Sequence record: NC_105618.1
Strand: one strand, 5' to 3'
DNA length: 50,465 bases
DNA from: a phage
The notes beneath the pieces are model-generated. The model did no database searches and had not been told where the DNA came from. It was given only the letters and a program-made list of their open reading frames with translations. This document shows, piece by piece, positions 4,225-41,701 of the stretch (position 1 is its first letter; the number at the start of each line of letters is the position of its first letter). The position numbers and the translations under genes are program-made.

Positions 4225-5337
4225 ATGAAGGCAAAGCAAAGATTCGATTCAGTAAAAATCAAGGCTCACTTTGATGATAACGGTTTTTTAGTTGACCGCC
4301 CAATCGTGGCGCGAATCGGCGCTCAGGTTTACAAAACGCCGCACGGCGATCGAGTTGAGTTCCGTCCGGCGTCCGAAGTTTTCAAGCAAGATTCCTTGCA
4401 AAGTTTTGCAGGCAAGCCGATCACAGTCGGTCACGTAACGGTGACACCCCAAAATGCTAAGGACGTTGTTGTCGGATCGTGTGCTGGCGCTGGTATTGCT
4501 TCAGGGGTTGGCGTTGAAGTTCCTTTGAGTATTTACAGCGACTACGCGATCAGCAAAGCTAAAGCGAAGGAGGCCGGGGAATTATCTGTAGGGTATACGT
4601 CGGTAGATATTGATAAGCCCGGCTGGGGTTCAAATGAGACTGGAGAATATATCTTCGAAGAGGATATGAAACAGGACGAAGCGCCGCCTGAAGGTTGGGT
4701 GAAATTCGACGCGGTACAAACTAATATCAAGGTCAACCATATTGCCCTAGTTTTTAAAGGTCGTGCGGGAATTGCTAAATTAAATCTTGATGCCGAACAG
4801 GAGTTCCCGTATGATAATAACGTTCAATTAACTAACGAGGACAAGCAAATGAAAAAAATTAAGATCGACTCAGTTGATGTGGAAGTAACCGAAGACGTTG
4901 CGAACCATATCGAAAAATTAACCGCGCAGATTGCCACCATTCAGGGGAAAGCTGATGGCTTCGAAGCTGAGCGCGATGCGCTGAAGGTTAAGGTTGACTC
5001 TCTGCCGGAACTTGTGAAGGCCGAGGTAGAGAAGCAAAAAGCCGATGCCGCCGCACGCGCAGAAGTTACCGCAGTAGCAGAAACCGCAGGCGTCAAACAT
5101 GATGGTCTTGATATCAAAGACGTCAAGATTGCCGTAGTTAAAGCCATGCTTGATAAAGATGTTAGTGAAAAATCAGACGCATATATCGACGCTATGTTTG
5201 ATGTTGCTAAAGATTCTGATATCATGGCTATTCAGCGTAAAGCAGTAAAAGGCGACTCTATCGAAGGCGGTAAGCCGGAAGAGAAAAACGACGCCGCGCC
5301 TGTTACGCCAAATTCACGTTTAAGTAAAGTAATGTAA
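4225..5337 (+). CDS. putative scaffolding / prohead protein
   Basis: AGGAGA RBS before in-frame ATG 4225; Ala/Glu/Lys-rich coiled-coil-like C-terminal half; lies between portal and capsid genes. Confidence 0.5.
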   Translation: MKAKQRFDSVKIKAHFDDNGFLVDRPIVARIGAQVYKTPHGDRVEFRPASEVFKQDSLQSFAGKPITVGHVTVTPQNAKDVVVGSCAGAGIASGVGVEVPLSIYSDYAISKAKAKEAGELSVGYTSVDIDKPGWGSNETGEYIFEEDMKQDEAPPEGWVKFDAVQTNIKVNHIALVFKGRAGIAKLNLDAEQEFPYDNNVQLTNEDKQMKKIKIDSVDVEVTEDVANHIEKLTAQIATIQGKADGFEAERDALKVKVDSLPELVKAEVEKQKADAAARAEVTAVAETAGVKHDGLDIKDVKIAVVKAMLDKDVSEKSDAYIDAMFDVAKDSDIMAIQRKAVKGDSIEGGKPEEKNDAAPVTPNSRLSKVM

Positions 5338-5348
5338 GGAGAAATATC

Positions 5349-5825
5349 ATGGCACAGATTAACGCATCTTATCAGCGCGATATGGCGATCGCTCTTCCGG
5401 GTATGGTTGCCGATACTTCCAAGTACAATATTGACGGCGCCTGTGTCGTTAATGAAGGCGATGTTTTTGTTGGCGCCGCCGTACAGGTTGTTCAAGCTCA
5501 GGCGGTTGATGGTCATAAGTTGGTTAAGGCTCTTACTACCGGAACCACTCCTTACGGCGTGGCGATCCGATCTCACTGGCAGACTGTTAACGCTCAAAAC
5601 CAGATGGTTTATGAAGACGGTGGCGCAATTAACGTGATGACTTCAGGCCGAGTATGGATGCTTTCCAAATCAGAAGAGGCGCCAACTTTCGGCTCTGCCG
5701 TTAAACTTGATGTTGATGGTCAAGAGAAATCTGATGGCACGATCGAAACAACATGGACCTACGCTGGCGGTTGGACTAAATACAAAGATGTTCAGCTTGT
5801 TGAGGTTCAGTTGCATCAACTGTAA
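5349..5825 (+). CDS. capsid-associated structural protein (decoration-like), paralog of 5886-6653
   Basis: AGGAGA RBS; shares YNIDGACV and GRVW..S..EAP motifs with next gene; followed by own terminator. Confidence 0.45.
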   Translation: MAQINASYQRDMAIALPGMVADTSKYNIDGACVVNEGDVFVGAAVQVVQAQAVDGHKLVKALTTGTTPYGVAIRSHWQTVNAQNQMVYEDGGAINVMTSGRVWMLSKSEEAPTFGSAVKLDVDGQEKSDGTIETTWTYAGGWTKYKDVQLVEVQLHQL

Positions 5826-5841
5826 TTAGCGTTTAATATGG

Positions 5842-5871
5842 GGACTATCCTTTTTGGATAGTCCTTTTTTT
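5842..5871 (+). terminator. intrinsic terminator
   Basis: GGACTATCC-TTTTT-GGATAGTCC then T7. Confidence 0.75.
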
Positions 5872-5885
5872 ATGGAGAAATCATT

Positions 5886-6653
5886 ATGGCTTACGAAAAT
5901 TTAATGTTGCGCCCGGCGTGCCCGGGAAATCTTTCTGATACTTCAGATTACAATATTGATGGTGCTTGCGTGGCTCAAGGTGACATTAAGTTCGGCTCGG
6001 CGGTTCAGGTTGTCGGTATCGTTGATGGTATAAAAGTTGTGGCGGCGCTTTCTGATGGTGGAACTCCTTACGGAATCGCTTTCCGTTCCCAATATGAACA
6101 CCTGAGCGGTAAAATCCTCGACGGTGAAGTGTGCAACGTCGTTTCTCACGGTCGCGTATGGACTCTTACTTCTCTTGGTGAGGCTCCCAGCTTGTTCTCA
6201 AAGTTACAGTTTGGGTCTGATGGAGTTGTTACTGGTGGATCTGGTTCCGCAGGTTGGACATTTGCGGGTGGCTTTGTTAAGCATGAAGATGGCTACATCA
6301 TTGAGGTTCAGGTGAAACAAAATTCTTTCATCGTTCCACCGCCTCCGCCCCCTGTCGTTCTTGTTGAATCCGCTGCAATCACCACTGACAAGGAAAGCCC
6401 TCAACCAAACAATGTTACGATCCAGTGTGTAGCTAATGTTCTTCCTGTAAATGCTGATGATAAAACTGGCAAGTGGTCAATCGACGCCATCAATATCGCC
6501 ACCATCGATCCGGACTCAGGCCTTGTGACTCCTGTTGGTGGGGAGACGGTCGGTGATTTCAATATCACATGGACTGCTAACGATGCCAGCAAGACGACAG
6601 CAACCATTGCTTATCGCGTAGAAGCAGTGCCAACTCCAGAGGTTGATGCATAA
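5886..6653 (+). CDS. capsid-associated structural protein with polyproline linker and Ig-like C-terminal domain
   Basis: N-terminal half paralogous to 5349-5825; PPPPPPP linker then beta-rich Ig-like region; own terminator. Confidence 0.45.
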   Translation: MAYENLMLRPACPGNLSDTSDYNIDGACVAQGDIKFGSAVQVVGIVDGIKVVAALSDGGTPYGIAFRSQYEHLSGKILDGEVCNVVSHGRVWTLTSLGEAPSLFSKLQFGSDGVVTGGSGSAGWTFAGGFVKHEDGYIIEVQVKQNSFIVPPPPPPVVLVESAAITTDKESPQPNNVTIQCVANVLPVNADDKTGKWSIDAINIATIDPDSGLVTPVGGETVGDFNITWTANDASKTTATIAYRVEAVPTPEVDA

Positions 6654-6674
6654 CATAAAAACACTTTGACGCTT

Positions 6675-6689
6675 TAACAAAAAGTGCTA
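6675..6689. promoter_or_regulatory. palindromic motif (operator-like) before major capsid gene
   Basis: TAACA-AAAAG-TGCTA. Confidence 0.4.
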
Positions 6690-6697
6690 TTATTGAA

Positions 6698-6744: not shown

Positions 6745-7704
6745 ATGACTACTAAAAAATTTGATGAAGCAGATAAAAGCAATGTTGAAATGTATCTGAT
6801 CCAGGCTGGCGTAAAACAGGATGCAGCCGCAACGATGGGTATCTGGACCGCTCAGGAACTACACCGCATCAAGAGCCAGTCCTATGAAGAAGACTACCCG
6901 GTCGGCTCCGCTCTACGAGTATTCCCGGTTACAACCGAACTCTCTCCGACCGACAAGACGTTTGAGTACATGACCTTTGATAAGGTTGGTACTGCTCAGA
7001 TTATCGCTGACTATACCGATGACCTGCCTCTGGTTGATGCACTTGGTACTTCTGAATTTGGTAAGGTGTTCCGTTTGGGTAACGCGTATCTGATCTCAAT
7101 CGACGAAATCAAAGCAGGTCAGGCAACTGGTCGCCCACTGTCAACCCGTAAGGCGAGCGCGTGCCAGTTGGCGCATGATCAGCTTGTTAACCGCCTGGTG
7201 TTCAAAGGTTCCGCGCCGCACAAGATCGTGTCCGTGTTCAACCATCCGAACATCACCAAAATTACCTCCGGTAAGTGGATGAATGTCTCAACTCCGAAGC
7301 CGGAAACGGCTGAAGCGGAATTGACTCAGGCGATTGAAACCATCGAGACGATTACTCGCGGTCAGCATCGTGCAACCAACATTCTGATCCCGCCGTCCAT
7401 GCGTAAGGTTCTGGCGATCCGTATGCCTGAAACTACCATGTCTTACCTGGACTATTTCAAGTCTCAGAATGCTGGTATCGAAATCGACTCTATCGCAGAG
7501 CTTGAAGATATCGACGGTGCGGGTACTAAAGGCGTACTGGTGTACGAAAAAAATCCGATGAATATGTCCATCGAGATCCCGGAAGCATTTAACATGCTGC
7601 CAGCGCAGCCGAAAGACCTTCACTTTAAAGTGCCTTGCACCTCCAAGTGTACTGGCCTTACAATTTATCGTCCGATGACTATTGTATTAATCACTGGCGT
7701 GTAA
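6745..7704 (+). CDS. major capsid protein
   Basis: about 320 aa, strong RBS, flanked by terminators, position after scaffold/decoration genes. Confidence 0.7.
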   Translation: MTTKKFDEADKSNVEMYLIQAGVKQDAAATMGIWTAQELHRIKSQSYEEDYPVGSALRVFPVTTELSPTDKTFEYMTFDKVGTAQIIADYTDDLPLVDALGTSEFGKVFRLGNAYLISIDEIKAGQATGRPLSTRKASACQLAHDQLVNRLVFKGSAPHKIVSVFNHPNITKITSGKWMNVSTPKPETAEAELTQAIETIETITRGQHRATNILIPPSMRKVLAIRMPETTMSYLDYFKSQNAGIEIDSIAELEDIDGAGTKGVLVYEKNPMNMSIEIPEAFNMLPAQPKDLHFKVPCTSKCTGLTIYRPMTIVLITGV

Positions 7705-7710
7705 TATTAT

Positions 7711-7739
7711 AGGGACTAACTTAGTTGGTCCCTTTTTTA
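7711..7739 (+). terminator. intrinsic terminator
   Basis: GGGACTAAC...TTGGTCCC then T6. Confidence 0.7.
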
Positions 7740-7753
7740 TTGGAGAAATCAAA

Positions 7754-8044
7754 ATGGCTAAAGAAAAAACTGTTGTTATCGTAAACGTTGGTGTAGCGCT
7801 TCAGATGTTCCGTCTTGAAGATGGCTCATTCGCAAAGGTTCTCCCGGATGAAGAGGTGACACTCCCAGCATCCGCACTTGAATTGCCCGGGCTGCGTTGC
7901 TTGATTGCTCGCGAAGAAATCGAAGTAAAAGACGACAGTGCCACCAACCGGGAAATCCGCGCAGAGATGGCTAAACTTAAAAAACCTGATCCGTGGGATA
8001 AGATGAGCGTAAAAGATCTTGAAGACGGCGGCGAATACTATTAA
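7754..8044 (+). CDS. hypothetical structural protein
   Basis: strong RBS GGAGA, own terminator downstream. Confidence 0.4.
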   Translation: MAKEKTVVIVNVGVALQMFRLEDGSFAKVLPDEEVTLPASALELPGLRCLIAREEIEVKDDSATNREIRAEMAKLKKPDPWDKMSVKDLEDGGEYY

Positions 8045-8049
8045 TCAAC

Positions 8050-8074
8050 AAGGCGCTTAATGCGCCTTTTTTTA
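8050..8074 (+). terminator. intrinsic terminator
   Basis: AGGCGC-TTAA-TGCGCCT then T-run. Confidence 0.7.
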
Positions 8075-8086
8075 TAGGTGGAAATT

Positions 8087-8500
8087 ATGGATCAAGAAAC
8101 ATTAAACAAAGTGGTCGAGCAAATGAGAAAGCTGGTTCCGGCACTTCGCAAGGTTCCAGACGAAACGCTTTATGCATGGGTAGAAATGGCTGAGCTATTT
8201 GTATGCCAGAAGACCTTTAAAGATGCATACGTCAAGGCGCTTGCTCTTTATGCATTGCACCTTGCTTTCCTTGATGGGGCGCTAAAAGGTGAAGATGAGG
8301 ATCTTGAATCGTACTCACGACGCGTTACGTCATTCTCCCTGAGCGGTGAATTTAGCCAGACTTTTGGAGAGGTGACGAAGAACCAGTCAGAGAACATGAT
8401 GCTTTCGACGCCGTGGGGTAAGATGTTCGAACAGCTTAAAGCGCGACGCCGTGGTCGATTCGCATTAATGACAGGACTCCGTGGAGGATGCCACCAATGA
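8087..8500 (+). CDS. putative head-tail connector protein
   Basis: position between capsid and tail genes; in-frame ATG 8087 after AGGTGGA (track starts at GTG 8078). Confidence 0.35.
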   Translation: MDQETLNKVVEQMRKLVPALRKVPDETLYAWVEMAELFVCQKTFKDAYVKALALYALHLAFLDGALKGEDEDLESYSRRVTSFSLSGEFSQTFGEVTKNQSENMMLSTPWGKMFEQLKARRRGRFALMTGLRGGCHQ

Positions 8501-8868
8501 ACTACTCACAGATCGAAAGGATTGCTCGCAAAGGCGTGGCTTTCTTCACCGATGCATCAAGACCTATGAACCTGATAAAGCAAGGTGAATACGGATATGA
8601 TGAAAACGGATTCGAGATCCCACCGATGGAACAGGTTATTCCAATATCCGGCGCGACGCGAAGACCGAACGCGCGTGAGATTGACGGGGAGACTATCCGC
8701 GCCTCAGACCTTTTGGGGATCTTCAATAACGACCATGAAATAAACGAAGGTGACTATATAGAGATTGACGGCGTTCGTCATGTTGTCGTTGATGCTCGCC
8801 CGGTTCAGGCGTCACTGAAACCAGTCGCCTATCGCCCAGTATTGCGGAGGGTATCAGTAGGTGGCTAA
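8497..8868 (+). CDS. putative head-tail joining protein
   Basis: position; GGAGGA RBS; overlaps upstream stop. Confidence 0.3.
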   Translation: MNYSQIERIARKGVAFFTDASRPMNLIKQGEYGYDENGFEIPPMEQVIPISGATRRPNAREIDGETIRASDLLGIFNNDHEINEGDYIEIDGVRHVVVDARPVQASLKPVAYRPVLRRVSVGG

Positions 8869-9304
8869 TTATCAGATTCGTAGATTTCAAGGTGAGATTG
8901 ATGCGTGGATTAAGGCCGCTGAAAGCACGTTAGAACATTCCATTGAGATATTTGTAAGGGATGTTCACGACGCGCTCGTTAGCCGTTCTCCCGTCGACAC
9001 GGGGCGCTTTAAGGGTAACTGGCAGATAACTTTTAACGAAATCCCTAACTACGCATTAAATCGATACGATAAAACTGGCGGCGTCGTCCGTAGTGAGGAG
9101 CAAGCCAAAACTTATGGCATGTTCAGCCGTGGGGGCGCGATAACATCCGTTCACTTCTCAAACATGTTGATTTATGCAAACTCTCTTGAGTACGGTCATT
9201 CACAACAAGCACCAAACGGCGTCGTCGGGCTGGTTGCATTGAGATTGCGATCGTATATGGCAGACGCAATAAAGCAAGCAAGGAGACAACAAAATGCACT
9301 ATGA
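8861..9304 (+). CDS. putative neck / tail completion protein
   Basis: position; GTG start overlapping upstream stop. Confidence 0.3.
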   Translation: MANYQIRRFQGEIDAWIKAAESTLEHSIEIFVRDVHDALVSRSPVDTGRFKGNWQITFNEIPNYALNRYDKTGGVVRSEEQAKTYGMFSRGGAITSVHFSNMLIYANSLEYGHSQQAPNGVVGLVALRLRSYMADAIKQARRQQNAL

Positions 9305-14458: not shown

Positions 14459-15241
14459 ATGAGCGAAAACAAAAAACTTTATGATGAAGAAAGCGGGAGA
14501 AGCCTGTTTCACAACTGCCTACAATCACTGTATCCTGGCGAGATAATCACCCTTATTGAAGTTGATGGTAGTAAGTTCGGTGCTCAGGTGTACCGATTCC
14601 ACGGGGAGAATATCCAGTACACTCCAGAAGAAATCATGCAGGCCCAGCAAACAGGAACGCTACCGCCGAAAGAAATTACCTTCCGCGGTGAACAGTACGG
14701 CGCGCGACCGTTCGGTATATCCGGGATCTCGTTCGACAGTTCAGGTAAGGCGACAAAACCACAATTAACGGTAGCAAACATTGATAGTCGAGTGTCTGCG
14801 ATGATTCGCGCGTATAACGGATTGATGCAGGCGAAGGTGACAATCTGGATAACTCAAAAGGACTTGATTAAACCTGATGGCTCAATCGCTGATGGTGCTT
14901 ATCGGAAGCTGGTATACTATATCGAACGCCCGAGCTATGTCGATAAGAGTGTTGCACGATTCGATCTCACGTCGCCGTATGATATGGATGGAATCATGAT
15001 ACCGTCACGACTCACGCAAAGCGTTTGCTATTGGGCGCAGCGTGGCTGGTATAAAACAGGGAAAGGTTGCGGATACAACGGGCAAAACGGTTACTTTGAC
15101 AAAGACAATAATCCTGTAAATGATCCCGCTCTCGACTTCTGCCCGGGAACGGTAACTGCCTGCCGCCTGCGATTCGGTGCAAACAATGAATTGGATTTTG
15201 GCGGCTGTGCTGTCGCTTCACTACAGAGGAAAAATCAATGA
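14459..15241 (+). CDS. minor tail protein (lambda L-like)
   Basis: position; C-terminal Cys cluster; AGAGGA RBS before in-frame ATG 14459. Confidence 0.6.
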   Translation: MSENKKLYDEESGRSLFHNCLQSLYPGEIITLIEVDGSKFGAQVYRFHGENIQYTPEEIMQAQQTGTLPPKEITFRGEQYGARPFGISGISFDSSGKATKPQLTVANIDSRVSAMIRAYNGLMQAKVTIWITQKDLIKPDGSIADGAYRKLVYYIERPSYVDKSVARFDLTSPYDMDGIMIPSRLTQSVCYWAQRGWYKTGKGCGYNGQNGYFDKDNNPVNDPALDFCPGTVTACRLRFGANNELDFGGCAVASLQRKNQ

Positions 15242-15972
15242 TTAGTGCAAAAATTAAACTTGAAATTATGACCCACGCTCAAGAAGAATACCCCCGCGAA
15301 TGCTGCGGGGTAGTTACCCAAAAGGGCCGTGTGCAAAAATACCACAGAGTCGATAATGTGCATCGTGATCCTGAAAATCATTTCATGATGGATGCTGTGC
15401 AGTACGCATGTATTGAGGACGATGCGGAATCAACCACGATCGCAATTGTTCATAGTCACACCGGGGACGGAGCTACAACTCTTCCAAGCGCTCACGATAC
15501 GTGCATGTGTAATGAGATGGAAGTGACATGGATTATTGTTAGCGTACCGGAAGGAGATATGCGATTTGTGAAGCCTGAGAAATTACCTCTGATTGGTCGT
15601 CCGTGGTCGTTAGGCTCATTTGACTGTTATGGTCTTGTTATGGCTTGGCACAAAGAGCACGGCGTAGAATTGCGCGATCGAAGGTTGAATTTTGAATGGT
15701 GGAAACCGGAATATGGAATTAATCTCTATCAGGATTATTACAAGCAAGATGGATTCGTTGAGATTCCAGATCAGAATAATCCGTCGCTCGGTGATATGGT
15801 AATCATGCAGATAGGGCAAAATGTTCCGGTGTGGAACCATGCGGGGATTTACCTGGGTGATAATCAGATCTTGCATCACGCATTCGGAAAGCTATCACGT
15901 CGTGATATTTATTCCGGCTGGTATCAGGATCACACGGTTTTAATTGTTCGCCATAAGGATCTTAAATTATGA
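15238..15972 (+). CDS. tail assembly protein (lambda K-like, JAMM/MPN + NlpC/P60-like)
   Basis: ECCG...HSH..D metal-binding motif followed by Cys/His papain-like domain. Confidence 0.7.
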   Translation: MISAKIKLEIMTHAQEEYPRECCGVVTQKGRVQKYHRVDNVHRDPENHFMMDAVQYACIEDDAESTTIAIVHSHTGDGATTLPSAHDTCMCNEMEVTWIIVSVPEGDMRFVKPEKLPLIGRPWSLGSFDCYGLVMAWHKEHGVELRDRRLNFEWWKPEYGINLYQDYYKQDGFVEIPDQNNPSLGDMVIMQIGQNVPVWNHAGIYLGDNQILHHAFGKLSRRDIYSGWYQDHTVLIVRHKDLKL

Positions 15973-16568
15973 ATGATGTAAAAGTAATCAAGTTATCCGG
16001 TTCGCTTGGTAGGCGCTTCGGTGTCTTTCACCGCTTTGCTGTTGACTCTTACCCTGAAGCCATTCGTGCGCTATCCAGTCAGGTAGATGGATTTAAAGAA
16101 TACATGCAGAGCGAGGTGGGATCACGTAGCAAGTTTGCAATATTTGTAGATGGCGTTAACGTTGGACACCATGAAGAGGAAAAATTCAAGTGCGCCAAAG
16201 AGATAAGGATTGTCCCGATCCCGACTGGTTCTAAGTCCGGCGGTCTATTCCAGGTTGTATTGGGTGCTGCAATAATGGTTGCGGCATTCTATACTGGCGG
16301 CGCATCTCTGGCGTTAATGGGCACAATGTCCTCATCACTGTTTATGATGGGCGGCGCTATGGTGCTGGGAGGCGTGATGCAGATGATTTCACCGCAGCCT
16401 GGAGGGGCAAACTTTGAAGTTCAATCAAGCAAGAATAAACCTTCGTACGCGTTCGGCGGTGCTGTCAATACGACGGCGGCGGGATACCCTCTCCCGGTCC
16501 CGTATGGATATCGCGCCGGAGGTGGCGCAACGTTCTCAGCAGGTTCCTATGCTGAGGATATGAGTTAA
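15969..16568 (+). CDS. tail assembly protein (lambda I-like)
   Basis: position before J-like gene; Gly/Ala-rich hydrophobic C-terminus. Confidence 0.55.
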   Translation: MNDVKVIKLSGSLGRRFGVFHRFAVDSYPEAIRALSSQVDGFKEYMQSEVGSRSKFAIFVDGVNVGHHEEEKFKCAKEIRIVPIPTGSKSGGLFQVVLGAAIMVAAFYTGGASLALMGTMSSSLFMMGGAMVLGGVMQMISPQPGGANFEVQSSKNKPSYAFGGAVNTTAAGYPLPVPYGYRAGGGATFSAGSYAEDMS

Positions 16569-16645: not shown

Positions 16646-19600
16646 ATGATTCAAAAAGTGATAAGCGGATCGAAAGGCGGTTCACCTAAGCCGCATAAGC
16701 CAGTTGAGATGGAAGATAATCTAATCTCAATCAACAAAATCAAGATCCTATTAGCTGTGTCTGATGGCGAGATTGACGAAACATTCAGCCTAAAGCAGTT
16801 GATGTTTAACTCAGTCCCGGTGCAAAACGAGGATGGCTCATTTAACTTCGAGGGAGTAAAGGCAGAGTTTAGGCCTGGGACGCAGACTCAGGAATATATC
16901 AAGGGGATGGAAGATAGCTCTAGTGAGGTAACTGTAAACCGTGAGGTTACTACAGATAACCCATACACGATCTCAGTAACCAACAAAACGCTTTCGGCAA
17001 TCCGTATCAAAATGTTTATGCCTCGCGGCGTAAGAATTGAGAGCAACGGAGACAAAAACGGCGTTCGAGTTGAGTACGAAGTACAGCAAGCGGTTGATGG
17101 TGGTTCGTTTGAGACTGTTCTCACTGACGTAATCGAAGGAAAAACAATGTCTGGTTACGATCGAAGCAGACGTGTAAACCTACCTAACTTCAACAATCAG
17201 GTGATATTCAGAGTCGTTCGTAAAACTCCAGACTCTAACGACTCGAACGTTGTTGACGCGATTCAGGTAAAGAGCTATGCCGAGGTGATTGATGCCAAAT
17301 TCCGTTACCCTCTGACTGGTCTTCTTTTCGTCGAGTTCGATTCGAAGATGTTCCCAAACCAGTTACCTACGATCTCAATTCGTAAGCGCTGGAAGATTGT
17401 AAACGTTCCGTCAAACTATGATCCAGAATCACGAACTTATAACGGAAATTGGGATGGAACTTTTAAGAAGGCGTGGACTAATAATCCGGCCTGGGTACTT
17501 TATGACCTGATGATTAATCAGCGTTATGGGCTTGATCAGAAAGAGCTTGGAATATCTGTCGATAAATGGGCGCTATATGAGGCGGCGCAATATTGCGATC
17601 AGATGGTTCCTGACGGTAAAGGCGGTACTGAGCCTCGCTACCTTTGCGACGTGATAATTCAGTCACAGACTGATGCGTACAAGGTGATTCGAGATATTTG
17701 CTCAATCTTCCGTGGAATGAGCTTTTGGAATGGTGAAAGCATTTCGGTAATCATCGACAGGCCGCGTGAACCTGCGTACATCTTCACTAATGACAACGTG
17801 GTTAATGGTGACTTCTCCTACACGTTCGCAAGCGAAAAGAGCATGTACACGACGTGTAATGTGATGTTTGATGATGAACAAAACATGTATCAGCAGGACG
17901 TTGAGCCAGTATTCGATCGTGAGGCTACTCTAAGGTTTGGTAACAACGTAACGAGCATTACAGCGATCGGTTGCACACGTCGAAGCGAGGCCAACCGACG
18001 CGGGAGGTGGATTCTGAAAACTAACCTCCGCAGCACTACGGTAAACTTCGCTACCGGACTTGAGGGCATGATCCCGACAATCGGAGATGTTGTAGCAATA
18101 GCTGATAATTTCTGGTCAAGTAACTTAACGATGAACCTGTCAGGGCGTTTGCTCGAAGTATCCGGTAGTCAGATTTTCCTGCCGTTCCGCGTTGATGCTC
18201 GCGCAGGTGACTTTATCATCTTAAATAAGCCCGATGGCAAGCCCGTGAAGCGCACAATCTCAAGTGTTAGTGCGGATGGTAAGACTATAGAGGTTAACAT
18301 CGGCTTTGGCTTTCCTGTGAAGCCTAACACGGTGTTTGCAATTGACCGCACCGACATTGCGTTACAGCAGTACGTCGTGACCAAAATCGACAAGGGTGAT
18401 GATGATGAGGAGTTTACCTACAAGATTACGGCGGTTGAGTACGATCCTAACAAGTATGATGAGATTGATTACGGAGTTAACATCGACGACCGACCGACGA
18501 GCATTGTTGAACCAGATCAGATCCCTAGACCGGAAAATGTGCAAGTGTCCTCAGAGTCTAGAATCGTGCAGGGAATGAGCGTAGAAACGATGATTGTTAG
18601 CTGGGATAAAGTGCCGTACGCAGTTTTCTATGACGTCCAGTGGAGAAAGGATAATGGAAACTGGCAGAACGTCCCGCAGACGGCAAACAAGGAGGTTTAT
18701 GTTGAAGGGATTTACGCTGGAAACTATCAGGTTCGCGTGCGATCAGTAGCTGGTTCCGGAACGACTTCGGGATGGTCAAATATCGTCGCAGCGACGCTGA
18801 CAGGTAAGCAGGGTGAGCCTGGTCGACCGATTAACCTTACAGCTACGGATGACGTTGTTTTTGGTATCCGTACAAAGTGGGGGTTCTCTGATGGTTCTGG
18901 AGATACGGCCTATACAGAATTGCAACAGTCACCGGATGGAACGGTTGATAACGCAAGTTTGCTATCTCTTATTCCATACCCGCAGCATGAGTATTATCAC
19001 TCACCAATGCCAGGGGGGAATATCGTGTGGTATCGAGTAAGAACTGTGGACAGGATCGGTAACGTGTCGCAATGGACTGATTTTGTCAGGGGCATGGCAT
19101 CAACAAACGTTGACGATATAATTGGTGAAATTTCTGTAGATATCGAAAACTCACCTGGTTATAAATGGCTTGTTGAGAATGCCACCGATAACTCGGCACA
19201 GAACGCAGCTAACGCAGAGGCAGCAATCGAAAATGCGTTAGCTAATGATAAAGACGCGATCTACATGAAGAAGGAGAACGGAAAGCGAAAAGCTGAGTAC
19301 ACCAAATCTCTTAAGCTGATTGCTGATGAGACGCAAGCGCGAGTGACGTCGATCGAGCAGTTGAAGGCAAGTTTTGACGATCAGATTAGCGCAAGCAATA
19401 GCGAGTTGCGTGAAGTTATAGCGACCGAGACTGGAGCGATATCGCGTGAAATTGACCAACTCAAGGCTCAGATTGGTGACGATATTCAGGCGAGCTTGAC
19501 AGATATCCGAGAGGCTATCGCAAACGAGACTGAGGCCAGAACTCAGGCCGACTTAACGTTAAACGCGAGGCTTGGAAATAACGAGGCGGCACTTGCTCAA

Positions 19601-20098
19601 AAACTTGACTCTTGGAGTAATGCGAGTTCTACCGGGGCGATGTACGGCGTTAAGCTGGGGCTGAAATACAACGGGCAGGAATACAGCGCAGGAATGGCTA
19701 TGTCCCTGATTGGTTCCGGCGCGGCTGTTAAGGCTCAGATTCTTTTTGAGGCGTCACGATTTGCAATCATGACCGGGATGAATGGAAAGACACAATACCC
19801 GTTTGTTGTTGAGAATGGTCAGGTTATTTTAAGTAGCGCGATCATTAAAAACGGATTCATCACTAATGCTATGATTGGAAACGTTATTCAATCGAATAAC
19901 TTCTCTTCAGGTAGTGCTGGATGGATGGTTAACAAGAATGGATCGGCTGAGTTTAATGCGGTTACTGTCAGAGGCAAACTTTACGCAAGTAACGGTGAGT
20001 TTGCATTCAACGGAACGGGTAATACCGTTCAGATTAACAATAACGGCATCACGGTAAACTTACCTGGTGGCGGGAAAGTTGTAGTGGGGAGGTGGTAA
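16646..20098 (+). CDS. central tail fibre / tail tip protein (lambda J-like)
   Basis: 1150 aa; follows the M-L-K-I-like genes; FN3-like region. Confidence 0.85.
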   Translation: MIQKVISGSKGGSPKPHKPVEMEDNLISINKIKILLAVSDGEIDETFSLKQLMFNSVPVQNEDGSFNFEGVKAEFRPGTQTQEYIKGMEDSSSEVTVNREVTTDNPYTISVTNKTLSAIRIKMFMPRGVRIESNGDKNGVRVEYEVQQAVDGGSFETVLTDVIEGKTMSGYDRSRRVNLPNFNNQVIFRVVRKTPDSNDSNVVDAIQVKSYAEVIDAKFRYPLTGLLFVEFDSKMFPNQLPTISIRKRWKIVNVPSNYDPESRTYNGNWDGTFKKAWTNNPAWVLYDLMINQRYGLDQKELGISVDKWALYEAAQYCDQMVPDGKGGTEPRYLCDVIIQSQTDAYKVIRDICSIFRGMSFWNGESISVIIDRPREPAYIFTNDNVVNGDFSYTFASEKSMYTTCNVMFDDEQNMYQQDVEPVFDREATLRFGNNVTSITAIGCTRRSEANRRGRWILKTNLRSTTVNFATGLEGMIPTIGDVVAIADNFWSSNLTMNLSGRLLEVSGSQIFLPFRVDARAGDFIILNKPDGKPVKRTISSVSADGKTIEVNIGFGFPVKPNTVFAIDRTDIALQQYVVTKIDKGDDDEEFTYKITAVEYDPNKYDEIDYGVNIDDRPTSIVEPDQIPRPENVQVSSESRIVQGMSVETMIVSWDKVPYAVFYDVQWRKDNGNWQNVPQTANKEVYVEGIYAGNYQVRVRSVAGSGTTSGWSNIVAATLTGKQGEPGRPINLTATDDVVFGIRTKWGFSDGSGDTAYTELQQSPDGTVDNASLLSLIPYPQHEYYHSPMPGGNIVWYRVRTVDRIGNVSQWTDFVRGMASTNVDDIIGEISVDIENSPGYKWLVENATDNSAQNAANAEAAIENALANDKDAIYMKKENGKRKAEYTKSLKLIADETQARVTSIEQLKASFDDQISASNSELREVIATETGAISREIDQLKAQIGDDIQASLTDIREAIANETEARTQADLTLNARLGNNEAALAQKLDSWSNASSTGAMYGVKLGLKYNGQEYSAGMAMSLIGSGAAVKAQILFEASRFAIMTGMNGKTQYPFVVENGQVILSSAIIKNGFITNAMIGNVIQSNNFSSGSAGWMVNKNGSAEFNAVTVRGKLYASNGEFAFNGTGNTVQINNNGITVNLPGGGKVVVGRW

Positions 20099-20104
20099 AA
20101 TATA

Positions 20105-20128
20105 AGGGGCCGAGTGGCCCCTTTTTTA
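20105..20128. terminator. bidirectional intrinsic terminator
   Basis: GGGGCC-GAGT-GGCCCC hairpin flanked by A-run and T-run between convergent genes. Confidence 0.7.
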
Positions 20129-21091
20129 ATACATGTTCGGAAGAACTATCAACGGAGATTGAATTGCTATGTTCCTGTTAGGCATCACGAATTGCTGTCG
20201 AGAGTAGTTGCCAACAACCTTATTTTTAGCAACTCTTACCTTGTTTCCAGCCATTCTAATCCCGTTCATCCTTACGTGGTTATATCCTCCATTCCCTTCA
20301 ATAAGTGCGCCGCAGTATGATAGCTGAATCAAGCTGTTTCCTATATCCTGATCCCCCGTTCCGATGTTGATTACGCGGTTGTAAACGAATGGCTTATTTA
20401 CTGTAGAAAAAGTAACCTGACCTTGCTTGTTTGTCATTGTTATACCGTTACCGCCGCGAGGTGGAGTGTTATTGAATATAACTAAATCCATAGAAACAGA
20501 GGCTGTTACGTCATCTCTCCCCCCGTATGATGCATTCCTTACCGTGATGTTTGAACCGTCAAATCCAACGCTTACATTAGGATCGTCCCATCTGGCGAAA
20601 GGTATGCCGCTTACTGGCAACTTCATGTTTCCATTTACAGTTATACGTTTTGAGTATTGGCACGTCATTAATTTTGCAACGTTTGATATAGCTGTGAAAT
20701 CAGTAGAGTTTGCAACCAGTAAGCCCTCGTTTCTTGTTCCTACTGGCAATATTTCCATGACAGTACCAGCCCATTGAGGTAGCCCGTTATATGCACTCAA
20801 TGCATCATCGCCTCTAATTATCACTCCGCTATTGCCATTCCTTGATACCGTCGTCGCATAAAACGGATCTGGTATAACAAGTGTCTGGTCGAACACCTCA
20901 ATAACGTCAACAGGTTTTGTGAAAACAACAACAACCTGAGATCCCGGAGTTAATGGAGTATTTACTGTTAACGCCTTGTTTGATTGCGCCCTCTGATTAA
21001 AGTTAGCGCAGAATGACGGTGCGCGAAGCCCTGCCGTTATTTGCATCGCTGGTCGTCCGTCATTGTAGTTTACATATATCCCCTCACCCAT
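20126..21091 (-). CDS. putative receptor-binding protein
   Basis: Gly/Asn/Thr-rich beta-type ORF; AAGGAG RBS before in-frame ATG 21091; translationally coupled to upstream lipoprotein gene. Confidence 0.35.
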   Translation of the reverse strand: MGEGIYVNYNDGRPAMQITAGLRAPSFCANFNQRAQSNKALTVNTPLTPGSQVVVVFTKPVDVIEVFDQTLVIPDPFYATTVSRNGNSGVIIRGDDALSAYNGLPQWAGTVMEILPVGTRNEGLLVANSTDFTAISNVAKLMTCQYSKRITVNGNMKLPVSGIPFARWDDPNVSVGFDGSNITVRNASYGGRDDVTASVSMDLVIFNNTPPRGGNGITMTNKQGQVTFSTVNKPFVYNRVINIGTGDQDIGNSLIQLSYCGALIEGNGGYNHVRMNGIRMAGNKVRVAKNKVVGNYSRQQFVMPNRNIAIQSPLIVLPNMY

Positions 21092-21093
21092 AA

Positions 21094-21324
21094 TTACCAC
21101 TCCTTAGTTTTGACTGAGATCTTACCGCTAAAGTTGCCCTGATTGTCGTCTGATGAAAGGCCTTTGAATCGCATGTCAACTTCTCCAGCAGGTACTTTCT
21201 TACCGTCAATGAATCGCATCATGCAAGATCCGTAAGCGTAAGTAACACAGTCGCCATTCTTAAGATTCTGAGCGCAACCAGTCAGGATGAACGCAGCGGC
21301 GATAATTGTGATTAACTTTTTCAT
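21094..21324 (-). CDS. small lipoprotein, putative superinfection-exclusion (Cor/Llp-like)
   Basis: signal peptide MKKLITIIAAAFILTGC with lipobox LTGC; about 60 aa mature; directly upstream of putative RBP. Confidence 0.5.
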   Translation of the reverse strand: MKKLITIIAAAFILTGCAQNLKNGDCVTYAYGSCMMRFIDGKKVPAGEVDMRFKGLSSDDNQGNFSGKISVKTKEW

Positions 21325-21851
21325 TTGTATGCCCTCGTCGTTAGTGTGTTTGAATTGTATGTCGCATTTACTTTTATTGCAATAGTTCGATTACAATTTT
21401 TTTCGCGTAACAGGTGTCTATTTTTGTAACTGGAAGTGGTGTTACAAAATCGACCTCATTCGACCGCAGGTAGATATGATAAAAACTCTATATAATATAT
21501 ATAGATAGATAATATTTAATTTTAGCTTTATATATATAATTATTGCTGTGTAACAGTTGTCTATCATGTAACAGGTGATTTGATTGATTCGTCAAATTTC
21601 TATCATATATGTTCAAAATTTAATCAATCTTGGTTCTATTCATGGATATCTGTGTATTTATAAGAAAAAGCGGTTACAAGTGTTACACAATATACACCAC
21701 ATAAAATCAAGGTTAATCTATTGATTCCATTGATGCTGGTTGTAACTTGAGCGATATAGACACACGATTACACACCAATTACATGTATTCGATTGACTAA
21801 ACGCTGTTAATGGCTATAATGGATTCATCGTAAACGAAGGAGATAAACGAA
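21325..21851. promoter_or_regulatory. AT-rich divergent control region with repeats
   Basis: 527 bp without ORFs; repeats GTAACAG(G/T)TGTCTAT and TCTATATAATATATATAG; contains sigma70-like promoter TTGACT-16-TATAAT. Confidence 0.6.
21793..21820 (+). promoter_or_regulatory. sigma70-like promoter for recombination operon
   Basis: TTGACT, 16 nt spacer, TATAAT, about 30 nt upstream of RBS of 21852 gene. Confidence 0.55.
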
Positions 21852-24109: not shown

Positions 24110-24140
24110 AGAAAGCCCCGCAATGCGGGGCTTTCTTTTA
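24110..24140. terminator. bidirectional intrinsic terminator
   Basis: AAAGCCCCGC-AAT-GCGGGGCTTT hairpin with T-run, between convergent genes. Confidence 0.7.
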
Positions 24141-26264
24141 TTCTTCTTTGCAACCTGTTGCGTGTGCTTCCTCCCACTCGCTTCTTTTTGCCACGTTTCT
24201 TACTTCTCGCTCCATCCTTTCTAATTCGGTGTTGTAAATGCTGTCAGGTGGCATTTCAACACGGATGCTAACGAAAGTATCATTCGGTATGTCGATCGGA
24301 TCGCCGTTCGAATAACCTTCCTTATCGTTCCTTGCGAACTTCGGCGCACTCTCATGCGTTCGATGGAATGTTTTAAGGATTATTGATCCATCGGCGTTTA
24401 CTTCATAATCAACCCACAATAGCGGCTGCTTGTTTATGTCAACCGGGATTTCGATTCCACCACTAATGCCACCCCAAGCAAGATCGGAGTTCAATCCTGT
24501 GCATCCTTCAATAAGGTACTCGCCAACCCCGATTCGCTGAACGGTGCAGCCCTCAGATTCGTCGTTGGTTTCGAAAGAATCCCTCTTAACCCTCACGATC
24601 GGTGAAGCTCGCTTGATAAATCCATTGACATCTACGGTTGTGTTTTTAGTTCCCCATAGAGCATTGACTTGAACCACGCCATTATTGAGGTCGCTATTGT
24701 TCGCGCCGATAGAGTAAACGTTAGCATTCCTGTAGTCAACTGAAAGTAATCCGAATGTGTCACCTGCAAGCATGTAGATAGCTGCGTTATACTGGAAGTT
24801 AGCTCCACCTGCAGAAGCCGCACCAGTATTACGCATAACCCTAGAACCTCCGGTATCGCGCATTCCCTTAATCCAACTTCCAATATTTGGTTGATTTATA
24901 TCCTTACCAGCACCTATTACCATAGTCTTATCACTATCTATTATAACCCTTCCGTCATATGCAACAGAGCTATCATCTCTCAACTGTAGTGCTCTATTAG
25001 ACGTTCCGTTTTTAAAATGAACATCATTTCCACCAACACTAATATAACCAGATTGATTTGGCCTTCCCTGATCGGAACGCTTAATTGTAATTCCGTATTC
25101 TACACTTGGGGATGCGCTAGTTAGAACCTCCTTCCACGCACCATAATTACCATTATTCATACATCTGAACATCATCCTTCCAGAACTTGAGTAAGATCCA
25201 GAGAGTTGAAATTTGTAATTGTTGCCCTGAGTGCAATTAAATGTTACAACACCCAAAAACTGACCATCACCAATACCGAATGGCTTTCCAAAGTTATCCC
25301 CATTACCAACATAGAATCCATTTGCCAGATTAACAGAATTACCCTCAGATAATGAGTTTACAAGTCCAGCACTTGATTGAAGGCCAAGCCCAAACTTATC
25401 TATATCAAGATTTGTTCTTGCAACGCTTTTGTTTGTCAATCCACTAAGATTACCATCCTTCGTTAACAGGTTGTCAGCGTTAATGCTATTAGCTGCGTCC
25501 TTTGCTTCCTGAGCGCTAACCGATGCCGCATCTTTTGCACTAACAGCATCGTCACGAGCCGCCTGTGCGTCGTTTTTTGCTGAGGTTGCAGTTTGCGCCG
25601 CCGCCTGGGCGTTGTTAACGTAACCTGACAGATCTCCTTTGGCGTCATTGATTGCTTTAATGGCTGCTTTCTCTTCCGTGTCGATGTGCGTAATCGCCGC
25701 TGATTCTTTAGAGCCTACATCTGTGATCGCTTGTTCTTTTGCTGCATTGATGCTACCGACAGCCCCGTCAACAATTTGCTGAACTTGGCCTTTGGTGGCT
25801 TTAGCTTCGTCACGTGCTGCATTCGCTGAGTCGCGAGCAAGTTCCGCTTGATTCTGTGCAGATTCAGCGGCTGATTTGTTCGCCTTAATTTCTTCAACGA
25901 TGCGGTTAAGGTTATCCATATCCAGACTCGCAATGATATCCATTGCCCCGGCAATCTCAGTCTCTTTGCTTTGATAGTATCGAAGCGTCTCAGCGACGTT
26001 TTGAGCCAATCCGTTAACAGTCAGTGAATCGTTAAGCAAGATCACATACTTACCGTCAGAGGCAGTCTGACCGTCGGTAGAGATAGCCTTTAATTCTGTG
26101 TCGCTAACGATATCGCTAATCACCGCCAGCTTAATTGGTTGCTCAAGGAATACGATAGTTGCACCTACGCGAATCAGAGCAAGCTGGTCTTTCCATTTTG
26201 TATCGGTTCCGTGAACCGTTCCGTCTGCATCCATTGATGCTGTACCGCGTCTATATAAAGCCAT
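24138..26264 (-). CDS. tail fibre protein
   Basis: 708 aa; Ala-rich coiled-coil segment; Gly/Asn/Ser-rich beta-type C-terminal region. Confidence 0.65.
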   Translation of the reverse strand: MALYRRGTASMDADGTVHGTDTKWKDQLALIRVGATIVFLEQPIKLAVISDIVSDTELKAISTDGQTASDGKYVILLNDSLTVNGLAQNVAETLRYYQSKETEIAGAMDIIASLDMDNLNRIVEEIKANKSAAESAQNQAELARDSANAARDEAKATKGQVQQIVDGAVGSINAAKEQAITDVGSKESAAITHIDTEEKAAIKAINDAKGDLSGYVNNAQAAAQTATSAKNDAQAARDDAVSAKDAASVSAQEAKDAANSINADNLLTKDGNLSGLTNKSVARTNLDIDKFGLGLQSSAGLVNSLSEGNSVNLANGFYVGNGDNFGKPFGIGDGQFLGVVTFNCTQGNNYKFQLSGSYSSSGRMMFRCMNNGNYGAWKEVLTSASPSVEYGITIKRSDQGRPNQSGYISVGGNDVHFKNGTSNRALQLRDDSSVAYDGRVIIDSDKTMVIGAGKDINQPNIGSWIKGMRDTGGSRVMRNTGAASAGGANFQYNAAIYMLAGDTFGLLSVDYRNANVYSIGANNSDLNNGVVQVNALWGTKNTTVDVNGFIKRASPIVRVKRDSFETNDESEGCTVQRIGVGEYLIEGCTGLNSDLAWGGISGGIEIPVDINKQPLLWVDYEVNADGSIILKTFHRTHESAPKFARNDKEGYSNGDPIDIPNDTFVSIRVEMPPDSIYNTELERMEREVRNVAKRSEWEEAHATGCKEE

Positions 26265-41092: not shown

Positions 41093-41701
41093 TTCCAATA
41101 ATTGCTCATTATTCCATCAATAGTGGAATAGTTGGAATAATTGCGATCCCGATTGATCTCGAATGATGAAACGTGATTATTGCATGGTGTGCAACAGTTG
41201 GTTGATTTGTTGCTGAGAATGCAATGATTGTGAGAGGGAGGATTTAGTGTTACCCGGTTCGCCTGGTAGTCATCTCCATTTTTAGCAAAAAGTGCTATCG
41301 ATTACACTTTAACTTGTCACGACTGTAATATTTGTCTAGAATCGCCATTGTGACAAAATTACACACTGTGACGCCTCTAAATATACATATAGATATATGT
41401 ATCTATATAATATATATAGTGTTTTTTTTATTTATATATATAGATAATTATATTGTAATAGCTGTGTATAGTTGTCTTACATTGTCTAGCGTACTGTTGG
41501 CATATTTCTATCTGCATGTTTATATATACAGTAATTTTTTGTGAGCTATATATTTCTATAGTGACTCTATACAGCTAGACAAATGTTACACAGCTTAAAA
41601 TTGGCTCGCAGGCGTTGACATATCTGCATTGCGCTGTCACAATGGCAATTGTTGACGCGTTATGACACCATTTACACACGAATAGACAAAGAGGTTATAT
41701 T
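41084..41701. promoter_or_regulatory. AT-rich divergent control region with repeats
   Basis: about 618 bp without ORFs of 60 aa or more; shares TCTATATAATATATATAG and GCTGTGTA..AGTTGTCT blocks with 21325-21851; GGAATA(A/G)TTG repeats. Confidence 0.6.
41283..41297. promoter_or_regulatory. isolated palindromic motif in control region
   Basis: TAGCA-AAAAG-TGCTA with no -10-like hexamer at the usual spacing. Confidence 0.35.

Follow-up and report, generated by a model that had tools for sequence, protein, structure and literature searches.

A predicted LptD-type receptor-binding protein and exclusion lipoprotein encoded next to the tail-tip gene of a T1-like siphophage

The window analysed here is the sequence of a T1-like coliphage, 50,465 nucleotides long (NC_105618.1). 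Its J-like tail-tip gene (1150 aa, 16646-20098, plus strand) is convergent with two minus-strand ORFs that encode a lipoprotein of 76 aa and a protein of 321 aa (Table 1). The ORF list and the sequence agreed with the preliminary description of this DNA in the coordinates of the pair, in its lipobox (LTGC) and in its orientation towards the J-like gene. Both ORFs are real genes, since their profile scores lie above the family cut-offs, which rules out chance ORFs. The 321-aa protein matched PF20051 with 409 bits (cut-off 25, E 1.5e-122), its residues 4-297 aligning with profile positions 1-290 of 291, as a full-length member. The lipoprotein matched PF24052 with 86.2 bits (cut-off 27, E 1.5e-24, residues 3-76). 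Matches to phrog_1265 (E 3.9e-120) and phrog_4281 (E 5.3e-36) were found for the 321-aa protein and the lipoprotein, respectively. The former is indeed Gly/Asn-rich, as described earlier (N 10.6%, G 10.0%), with valine at 10.9%.

The 321-aa frame runs from an ATG at 21091 to a stop codon at 20126-20128. An in-frame GTG at 21100 would extend it to 324 aa; homologues begin with MGxGI at the ATG. The TAA stop codon of the lipoprotein gene (21096-21094) ends 2 nt ahead of this ATG, and the last codons of the lipoprotein gene contain an AAGGAG motif. Given this gap and this placement, close coupling of the translation of the two genes is plausible as read from the sequence, and the coupling asserted earlier is retained in this weaker form.

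Table 1. Features of the locus, with positions in the window.
Feature	Position	Strand	Description
J-tip specificity part	19883-20098	+	Likely docking site of the RBP; left part of an exchangeable specificity cassette
Bidirectional intrinsic terminator	20104-20123	.	AAGGGGCC-GAGT-GGCCCCTT; 8-bp stem with 6 GC pairs; T-run on both strands
Receptor-binding protein (RBP) gene	20126-21091	-	321 aa; DUF6453/PF20051; Rtp44 / RBP-Oekolampad family; predicted terminal receptor LptD in the LptDE translocon
Shine-Dalgarno sequence of the RBP gene	21100-21105	-	AAGGAG, inside the 3' end of the lipoprotein gene, 8 nt upstream of the ATG at 21091; read from sequence
Lipoprotein gene	21094-21324	-	76 aa; PF24052; Rtp45 family; predicted superinfection-exclusion lipoprotein
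Lipoprotein signal peptide	21277-21324	-	aa 1-16
Predicted lipidated Cys17	21274-21276	-	
Mature lipoprotein domain		-	~59 aa, with Cys26 and Cys34
AT-rich divergent control region	21325-21851	.	Between the lipoprotein operon and a recE-like exonuclease gene
Candidate sigma-70 promoter	21354-21382	-	TTGCAA-17 nt-TACAAT; 9/12 consensus matches; 30 nt ahead of the lipoprotein ATG
Divergent promoter-like site	21793-21820	+	TTGACT-16-TATAAT

The terminator, which lies where J and the RBP gene converge, scored as such on both strands. The element is annotated in phage SA12KD and conserved in ISF002 and Oekolampad. On the other side of the pair, the 527-bp control region has a GC content of 31%, versus 45.5% for the window, is ~93% identical to its T1 counterpart and holds four of the window's seven TGTAACA/TGTTACA heptamers. 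The whole candidate promoter is identical in ISF002 and T1; in Oekolampad, its -35 element (TTGCAAT) aligns and the flanks are poorly conserved. Promoter-like matches in the control region showed no excess over shuffled sequence (six found, 5.8 expected). The earlier statement that both genes are driven from this AT-rich region is no more than plausible, with the composition and the candidate promoter in its favour and the count of promoter-like matches against it. The two genes would form one short operon that has its terminator in common with J; we infer their co-transcription and the timing of their expression.

Rfam, at the gathering threshold, gave no match anywhere in the window, PADLOC gave none, and NCBIfam gave only a sub-threshold match to the signal peptide. 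In a blastn search ('distant' setting) of complete E. coli genomes, the operon had no match at the DNA level, and no sign of a prophage moron was seen.

The 321-aa protein is the homologue of a structurally solved RBP. In a phmmer search of all PDB chains, it matched 9rpt_C/9rpw/9rqi (E 1.9e-173) without gaps over residues 1-321 at 79% identity. These chains are the RBP of phage Oekolampad (Bas18) on LptDE, determined by cryo-EM at ~2.8 A (Dunbar et al. 2025, PNAS; PMC12685063). The 67 of 321 residues that differ (21%) are evenly distributed along the chain, and a changed loop preference or receptor would be a conceivable consequence. Gln299, which forms a hydrogen bond with LptD Ser350 in the Oekolampad complex (PMC12685063), is conserved. 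AlphaFold2, run on the single sequence, returned a pLDDT of 30 and a pTM of 0.18, values too low for a usable model. One published definition of LptD-specific RBPs asks for an identity of >30% with a coverage of >99% when they are compared with RBPs of phages whose LptD dependence was assigned by experiment (bioRxiv 10.64898/2026.04.02.716166), and the end-to-end alignments of the window RBP lie within these limits: identity was 79% to Oekolampad, 43% to MSK, as to ISF002, and 33% to Rtp44. The receptor-prediction models of the same preprint made no incorrect positive calls among 49 test phages (bioRxiv 10.64898/2026.04.02.716166). Rtp44 is itself 96% identical to the RBP of the LptD-dependent phage Bas01 (PMC12685063), and OzMSK, near-identical to MSK, was found to be LptD-dependent by deletion of LptD loop 11 (PMC13035648).

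Position agrees with homology. In the LptD-targeting RBP family of small siphophages, as here, the RBP gene lies directly downstream of the gpJ homologue, converges with it and has a small lipoprotein gene ahead of it. The order lipoprotein, then RBP, convergent with J, is common to Oekolampad, ISF002 and Rtp. The unannotated MSK sequence has an RBP ORF and a convergent J ORF, with a lipoprotein homologue just upstream of the RBP.

The lipoprotein begins with MKKLITIIAAAFILTG|CAQ, in which the lipobox L-T-G-C ends at Cys17, and it matched LPAM_1. In E. coli Lol sorting, Asp at position +2 is the signal for retention in the inner membrane. Residue +2 of the lipoprotein is Ala, not Asp, so it carries no such signal, and its predicted destination is the inner leaflet of the outer membrane. 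By phmmer, it matched PDB chain 9rps_D, which is Rtp45 (E 1.1e-9). Its identity to the homologues in ISF002, Oekolampad (bas18_0026) and Rtp (Rtp45) was 93%, 67% and 41%, respectively. Invariant positions in the four-way alignment with these proteins included Cys17, Cys26, Cys34, G24, T28, A30, G32, V44-P45-A46-G47, D50, R52 and E75-W76, and the VPAGEVD.R motif was invariant as well. Cys26 and Cys34 correspond to the Cys30-Cys38 disulfide of Rtp45.

Compared with the Tunavirus ISF002, J is 97% identical overall and diverges in its last ~70 aa, which include an Oekolampad-like patch; nucleotide identity to ISF002 regains at least 82% only below ~19870. Compared with T1, J is near-identical through ...ITNAMIGN (aa ~1079) and unrelated thereafter. 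PF09327 spans J aa 983-1118. The end motif AFNGTxNTVQINNNGITVNLPxGGRVVVGxW is common to the five LptD-type phages compared, more loosely in Oekolampad, and absent from T1. The J tip of the window bears this LptD-type motif and co-varies with the RBP subtype, which gives indirect support to a place of the RBP on the virion, at the tip of the central tail fibre. The C-terminal stretch of J (Table 1) is the likely docking site of the separate RBP.

The mosaic edges of the cassette are sharp. One lies at J codon ~1080 and the other at RBP codon ~28 or exactly at the lipobox cysteine. The J body, the first ~27 codons of the RBP gene, the lipoprotein and the control region of the window are shared with ISF002, and the RBP body and the J-tip patch have been exchanged relative to ISF002-type Tunaviruses. 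As the nearest relatives differ (Tunavirus type for the lipoprotein, Dhillonvirus type for the RBP), the pairing of the two was not co-inherited. A tblastn match between RBP residues 1-34 and Citrobacter phage HCF1, considered as a portable N-terminal adaptor, was dropped because it lies in an unverified assembly in which the gene is cut off.

With high confidence, we regard the two genes as an allele, specific for LptD, of the cassette that determines receptor choice in T1-like siphophages (Drexlerviridae). As judged from its sequence, the 321-aa protein most likely attaches the phage to LptD, the exporter of lipopolysaccharide in the outer membrane. The separate ancestry of the two genes is a point against this reading. 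For LptD binding, the exclusion mechanism and resistance mutations, we draw on papers on homologues. The locus downstream of gpJ, which is hypervariable, has been recognised as the receptor-specificity locus of Drexlerviridae (Maffei et al. 2021; bioRxiv 10.64898/2026.04.02.716166). It is improbable that the RBP encoded here now recognises a different protein of the outer membrane or depends on a co-receptor, which would mean that LptD is not the (sole) terminal receptor. RBP families can change specificity, a fifth of the residues differ from the solved protein, the RBP body and J-tip patch were exchanged as described, and Bas01 combines an LptD-type RBP with a J tip through which it needs NupG as a second receptor (bioRxiv 10.64898/2026.04.02.716166). 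However, every family member tested (Bas01/02/14/18/19/20/25 and OzMSK), down to 33% identity, uses LptD. Gln299 is retained, the J tip has no extension, as seen from its length and its identity to ISF002, and the lipoprotein encoded with it is homologous to Rtp45 and has 93% identical copies beside MSK-type RBPs.

The lipoprotein also raises the question of Cor, which blocks FhuA in T1, phi80 and N15, and of lysis proteins. Either identity, in place of an LptD blocker, is very unlikely. The signal peptide is identical to that of T1 Cor in 17 of 17 positions by BLASTP, phrog_1119 (Cor) was matched with E 5.9e-6, and PF24052 gave T1 Cor a weak, sub-threshold score (17.7 bits; cut-off 27). Yet the phrog_1119 match spans residues 1-33 only, the proteins are unrelated past the lipobox, and DNA identity collapses right after the Cys codon. 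FhuA-type RBP genes (ST31/ST32-like) are absent from the locus, and the mature part can be aligned, both cysteines included, to Rtp45 as well as to the superinfection-exclusion (SE) protein of Oekolampad. A homologue in Chapo is annotated as a unimolecular spanin (u-spanin), a class defined by an N-terminal lipobox and a C-terminal transmembrane domain. The C-terminus (...GNFSGKISVKTKEW) is hydrophilic and has no hydrophobic segment, so the lipoprotein is not a u-spanin, and no spanin family in Pfam or PHROGs was matched. The phrog_1265 label ('membrane protein; moron, auxiliary metabolic gene and host takeover') and many records, several of them in RefSeq ('membrane protein' or 'hypothetical protein'), would make the 321-aa protein a moron or membrane protein with no part in the virion. 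This is scarcely credible beside its distant Kuravirus homologues, which are encoded among the tail genes, immediately behind that of the tail needle.

An LptD-directed pair would work as follows. The separate RBP, presumably carried on the virion at the J tip, would enter the LptD barrel from outside, at its extracellular opening, and contact extracellular loops 3-5 and 11, and this contact would lead to irreversible adsorption and DNA delivery. The 76-aa product would be exported, lipidated at Cys17 and sorted to the outer membrane, where it would bind the periplasmic side of LptD. A hairpin pushed up the barrel lumen would displace extracellular loop 4, and the displacement would block RBP binding. 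The lipoprotein may thereby exclude superinfecting LptD-dependent phages and keep progeny virions from being lost to cell debris. The solved structure of Rtp45 with LptDE places it on the periplasmic face, from which it prevents RBP binding; its exclusion function rests on structure, and no plating phenotype was found in that paper (PMC12685063). The Oekolampad SE protein could not be expressed, and its function was inferred (PMC12685063).

The preliminary description had proposed an RBP and superinfection-exclusion pair, which is well supported by these homologies, the match to the Oekolampad chains being the comparison with known RBPs that it had suggested. Its further claim that the locus sets host range is overstated. 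The locus would set the terminal receptor, an essential and conserved outer-membrane protein. The region in which the window phage differs from its closest relative, SA12KD, is the lateral tail fibre (24138-26264), and lateral tail fibres of such phages have been linked to O-antigen recognition (Maffei et al. 2021).

The two-gene cassette reading is already published for close homologues and the mechanism was solved in 2025; nothing mechanistic is new here. The gain lies in annotation, in which genes labelled 'hypothetical protein', 'membrane protein', 'lipoprotein' or 'u-spanin' become an LptD-type RBP and an exclusion lipoprotein. For this Tunavirus lineage, LptD becomes the predicted terminal receptor in place of FhuA, the receptor of T1. 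Laboratory strains that are 'T1-resistant' through tonA/fhuA would not protect against such a phage, and deletion of LptD loop 11 should (PMC13035648).

We also consider, tentatively and without favouring it, a broader proposal in which the locus is one case of a portable three-part LptD kit (J-tip domain, DUF6453 RBP and PF24052 lipoprotein) that reassorts at fixed junctions. The proposed junctions are the two codons and the lipobox cysteine named above as mosaic edges. All three parts are carried by Kuravirus podophages. In SU10, the J-tip domain is found in gp18 (the tail needle), the unassigned gp19 is the DUF6453 protein, and another part of the genome encodes a distant lipoprotein of PF24052. 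LptD might then be the unrecognised terminal receptor of Kuraviruses and gp19 their missing needle tip; no literature linking these Kuravirus parts to LptD was found. If the proposal were true, the exclusion lipoprotein of one lineage could serve the RBP of another, with cross-exclusion among all LptD phages.

Among known systems, T5 offers the comparison drawn in the preliminary description, which had pointed to T5 and T1-like phages. The logic is the same in pb5/Llp: the central fibre bears a monomeric RBP at its tip, and a small periplasmic lipoprotein acts on the same receptor from inside. However, the T5 receptor is FhuA, not LptD(E). Its transporter is TonB-dependent, and Llp acts on it through long-range allostery; Rtp45, in contrast, pushes extracellular loop 4 aside physically. 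By phmmer against all PDB chains, the RBP matched only 9rpt at E<=0.01, and the lipoprotein, at E<=1, matched only 9rps besides a chance hit. The window pair is not a member of the pb5 and Llp families, and the likeness is one of analogy.

T1 belongs to the same genus and shares the J body, the recE control region and the lipoprotein signal peptide, to the extents given above. At the same site, however, it carries ST32-ST31-cor, that is, two plus-strand genes and Cor, which are unrelated to the RBP and the Rtp45-like lipoprotein; the T1 receptor is FhuA, and ST32-ST31-cor is the FhuA allele. The 'hand-like' RBP family (PMC12309495; PHROG 425) is different from the DUF6453 family. Judged by its place (second ORF downstream of J) and its label ('membrane associated protein'), it appears to match T1 ST31.

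The RBPs of MSK/OzMSK and of ISF002/Sfin/SH6-type Tunaviruses are of the same family and locus as here. Their RBP body is only 43% identical, the window belonging to the Oekolampad-type subfamily, and with this goes the divergence of J over its last ~70 aa. Rtp has a two-gene operon of the same two Pfam families downstream of and convergent with rtp43, its J homologue. It differs in the low identities of both proteins (33% and 41%), in a 1-base overlap of the ORFs instead of a 2-nt gap and in its control region, which holds an additional gene, rtp46. The closest likeness to the RBP is that of the Dhillonvirus Oekolampad, whose RBP (bas18_0025) and SE lipoprotein (bas18_0026) have the same gene order and orientation to J, with a conserved terminator and promoter -35 element. 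Its backbone is nevertheless that of a Dhillonvirus and not of a Tunavirus, its J is only 36% identical, and the lipoprotein of the window is closer to the Tunavirus type.

Homology to solved complexes indicates that the two minus-strand genes convergent with the J-like tail-tip gene very probably encode a receptor-binding protein (RBP) for LptD, a subunit of the outer-membrane LPS translocon LptDE, and a lipoprotein that blocks LptD. The 321-aa protein was a full-length member of Pfam family DUF6453 (PF20051; 409 bits, cut-off 25) and also matched phrog_1265. Its single match among all PDB chains was the LptDE-bound RBP of Oekolampad (Bas18, a Dhillonvirus; 9rpt_C, also 9rpw and 9rqi; E 1.9e-173), with a gap-free alignment over residues 1-321 of both chains and 79% identity. 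According to the study reporting these entries (Dunbar et al., PNAS 2025, PMC12685063), the Oekolampad RBP enters the open-state LptD barrel deeply and contacts EL3-5 and EL11, and the single LptD mutations Y671N and D352Y abolish both RBP binding and infection. Gln299, named there as a contact residue, was conserved in the 321-aa protein.

More distant relatives were the RBP of phage MSK (43% identity) and Rtp44 of phage Rtp (33%). For OzMSK, which is near-identical to MSK, LptD dependence was established via a designed loop-11 deletion (PMC13035648). A 2026 preprint on 1,050 genetic screens (bioRxiv 10.64898/2026.04.02.716166) found that this locus can encode RBPs of four unrelated families, one specific for each of FhuA, BtuB, LptD and YncD; with families defined there by >30% identity and >99% coverage, the 321-aa protein belongs to the LptD family. 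Its 67 substitutions relative to the Oekolampad RBP were spread evenly along the chain. We consider a shift of this allele to another receptor unlikely, since LptD is the receptor of every family member tested and the accompanying lipoprotein resembles Rtp45.

This lipoprotein, of 76 aa, belonged to PF24052 (Phage_lipoprotein; 86 bits, cut-off 27), and its only meaningful PDB match was Rtp45, the lipoprotein of phage Rtp (9rps_D, E 1.1e-9). The preliminary description had proposed an RBP and superinfection-exclusion pair, and solved homologues exist for both members. Identity was 93% to the lipoprotein of the Tunavirus-type relative ISF002, 67% to Oekolampad bas18_0026 and 41% to Rtp45. The predicted LTGC lipobox was borne out by a textbook lipoprotein signal peptide (MKKLITIIAAAFILTG preceding the cysteine); this cysteine and Cys26/Cys34, which correspond to the Rtp45 disulfide pair, were invariant across the aligned lipoproteins. 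Rtp45 was solved at the periplasmic face of LptD, between LptE and LptM, where its hairpin rises through the lumen and shifts EL4 by up to 20 Å, a displacement incompatible with RBP binding (PMC12685063).

Two other identities for the lipoprotein failed: that of a Cor-type protein, to which the likeness was limited to the signal peptide, and that of a u-spanin, whose C-terminal membrane anchor was absent. Homologues are labelled 'u-spanin' in Chapo and 'Cor superinfection exclusion protein' in vB_Ec-G8, and those of the RBP 'membrane protein', 'hypothetical protein', 'putative tail protein' and, once, 'exonuclease'. The database reading of the 321-aa protein as a 'membrane protein / moron' conflicts with the structure of its homologue in complex with LptDE. 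Seven 'Campylobacter phage' records (e.g., A123 and A121) held the lipoprotein-RBP pair at 58-64% identity, which seems odd for that host.

The region was 99.7% identical in nucleotide sequence to Escherichia phage vB_EcoS_SA12KD (Drexlerviridae, Tunavirinae, Tunavirus) and was also present in four further Tunavirus-like genomes (90-95%). In its neighbourhood, a tail-tip block of the T1 type gave way to a divergent block of recombination genes. Both ORFs were present at the positions and on the strand first proposed; the convergence with the J-like gene and the Gly/Asn-rich composition of the 321-aa protein (10.9% Val, 10.6% Asn, 10.0% Gly) were likewise upheld. The lipoprotein stop codon (21096-21094) precedes the ATG of the 321-aa ORF by 2 nt.

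Features of the locus and its surroundings, with the matching parts of Kuravirus comparison loci
Feature	Position (nt)	Strand	Remarks
K-like gene	15238-15972
I-like gene	15969-16568
J-like gene	16646-20098		1150 aa; domains FNIII-A_GpJ, Phage-tail_3, Phage_Tail_Tip
GC-rich hairpin	20104-20123		between convergent J and 321-aa genes; T-runs follow on both strands
RBP gene	ATG 21091, end 20126	minus	321 aa
Lipoprotein gene	21094-21324	minus	76 aa
Shine-Dalgarno AAGGAG	21105-21100		strong; 8 nt upstream of ATG 21091
Promoter-like element TTGCAA-17-TACAAT	21382-21354		best placed in control region
GTAACA-type motif cluster	21392-21691
Exonuclease VIII, Erf-like and SSB-like genes	from 21852
Lateral tail fibre gene	24138-26264	minus	708 aa; Phage_tail_C_2 domain at residues 541-672
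Kuravirus parts, phiEco32 (L007)	4689-6690
Kuravirus parts, SU10 (L009)	7089-9090
Kuravirus parts, Paul (L008)	2441-2722

The 527-bp control region upstream of the lipoprotein gene was AT-rich as described (31% GC vs 45.5% in the whole window). The promoter said to drive both genes from it is putative, since a scan found promoter-like sites to be no more numerous than in shuffled sequence; ISF002 and T1 had the best-placed element in identical form, and Oekolampad aligned with its -35. The GTAACA-type motifs, TGTAACAG(G/T)TG plus complement, may serve as operators for a phage regulator or may be origin-like repeats. Four of the seven TGTAACA/TGTTACA heptamers in the window fell within this intergenic region, and the 11-mer, with one mismatch allowed, occurred six times in the window vs 1.1 expected (other two loose matches at 41190 and 41580).

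Oekolampad, ISF002, Rtp and MSK share the order lipoprotein then RBP, convergent with J, whereas T1 carries another allele at the same site, where ST32 and ST31 lie on the plus strand and cor on the minus strand. The site is the hypervariable receptor-specificity locus that Maffei et al. (2021) described. Nucleotide identity to ISF002 was 85-94% across the control region, the lipoprotein gene and the first ~27 codons of the RBP gene, fell to about 40% at ~21010 and exceeded 80% again only at positions below ~19870, which lie in J. Overall, J was 97% identical to ISF002 J, with divergence in the last ~70 residues, where Oekolampad-like patches such as NNFSSGSAGW and AEFNAVTVRGKLYAS were found; compared with T1 J, it was near-identical to residue ~1079 and unrelated beyond. 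The control region and lipoprotein signal peptide showed ~93% DNA identity to T1 (21325-21851 and 21274-21324 vs 5620-6387 of the T1 locus L006). The signal peptide matched that of T1 Cor at 17 of 17 residues, lipobox Cys codon included, and similarity was lost exactly past that codon; the junction between signal peptide and mature domain thus acts as the right-hand boundary of the receptor-specificity cassette, whose extent, judged from the sharp identity edges against ISF002 and T1, is about 19883 to about 21273. The nearest relatives of the RBP body and of the lipoprotein differed, which fits a lipoprotein acting on the receptor, not on the RBP. T1 J has one more 29-aa copy of a tandem coiled-coil repeat (...REVIATETEALSREIDQLKAQIGDDIQASLTDI...) than J of the window (19346-19520), and this copy explains most of what the two proteins differ by in length.

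The suggestion that this locus sets host range was overstated, as LptD is essential and conserved and the clear difference from SA12KD lies in the distal lateral tail fibre. The first 290 aa of that fibre were 94% identical to SA12KD, whereas the distal two-thirds were unrelated. The window thus comes from a phage other than SA12KD, and the two differ in a part expected to mediate primary host recognition.

By homology, the RBP would cap the J fibre and bind LptD. In Lol sorting, Asp at position +2 of a lipoprotein is the inner-membrane retention signal, and Ala at this position suggests that the lipoprotein, once exported and lipidated, would be sent to the outer membrane. There it would lock LptD in a conformation unable to bind the RBP, so that further LptD-dependent phages would be excluded and progeny spared adsorption to debris. 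As the genes form one compact two-gene unit, the RBP would be produced along with the exclusion factor, probably by co-transcription.

Kuravirus podophages (phiEco32, SU10, Paul and others) held three parts matching this siphophage LptD kit. A tail-needle protein, gp18 in SU10, contained PF09327, the Pfam domain of the J tip (95 bits), and the gene directly after the needle gene (SU10_019 / phi32_21, 343 aa) was a true DUF6453 member (SU10_019: 83.5 bits; E 4.9e-9 to 9rpt_C). The third part, encoded elsewhere in the genome, was a strong PF24052 lipoprotein, Paul_110 (122.8 bits; E 3e-15 to Rtp45). The SU10 structure paper nowhere mentions gp19, one modelling paper notes that the Kuravirus spike may be capped by a further protein, and our literature search found no paper linking Kuravirus phages to LptD. 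We regard this match as a lead, not as a finding on the window.

Near-identical sequences are already in GenBank, where they are poorly annotated, and the system type, the LptD receptor and both mechanisms are already published. Rtp45 acts on LptD by a steric mechanism, whereas T5 Llp acts on FhuA allosterically (PMC12685063).
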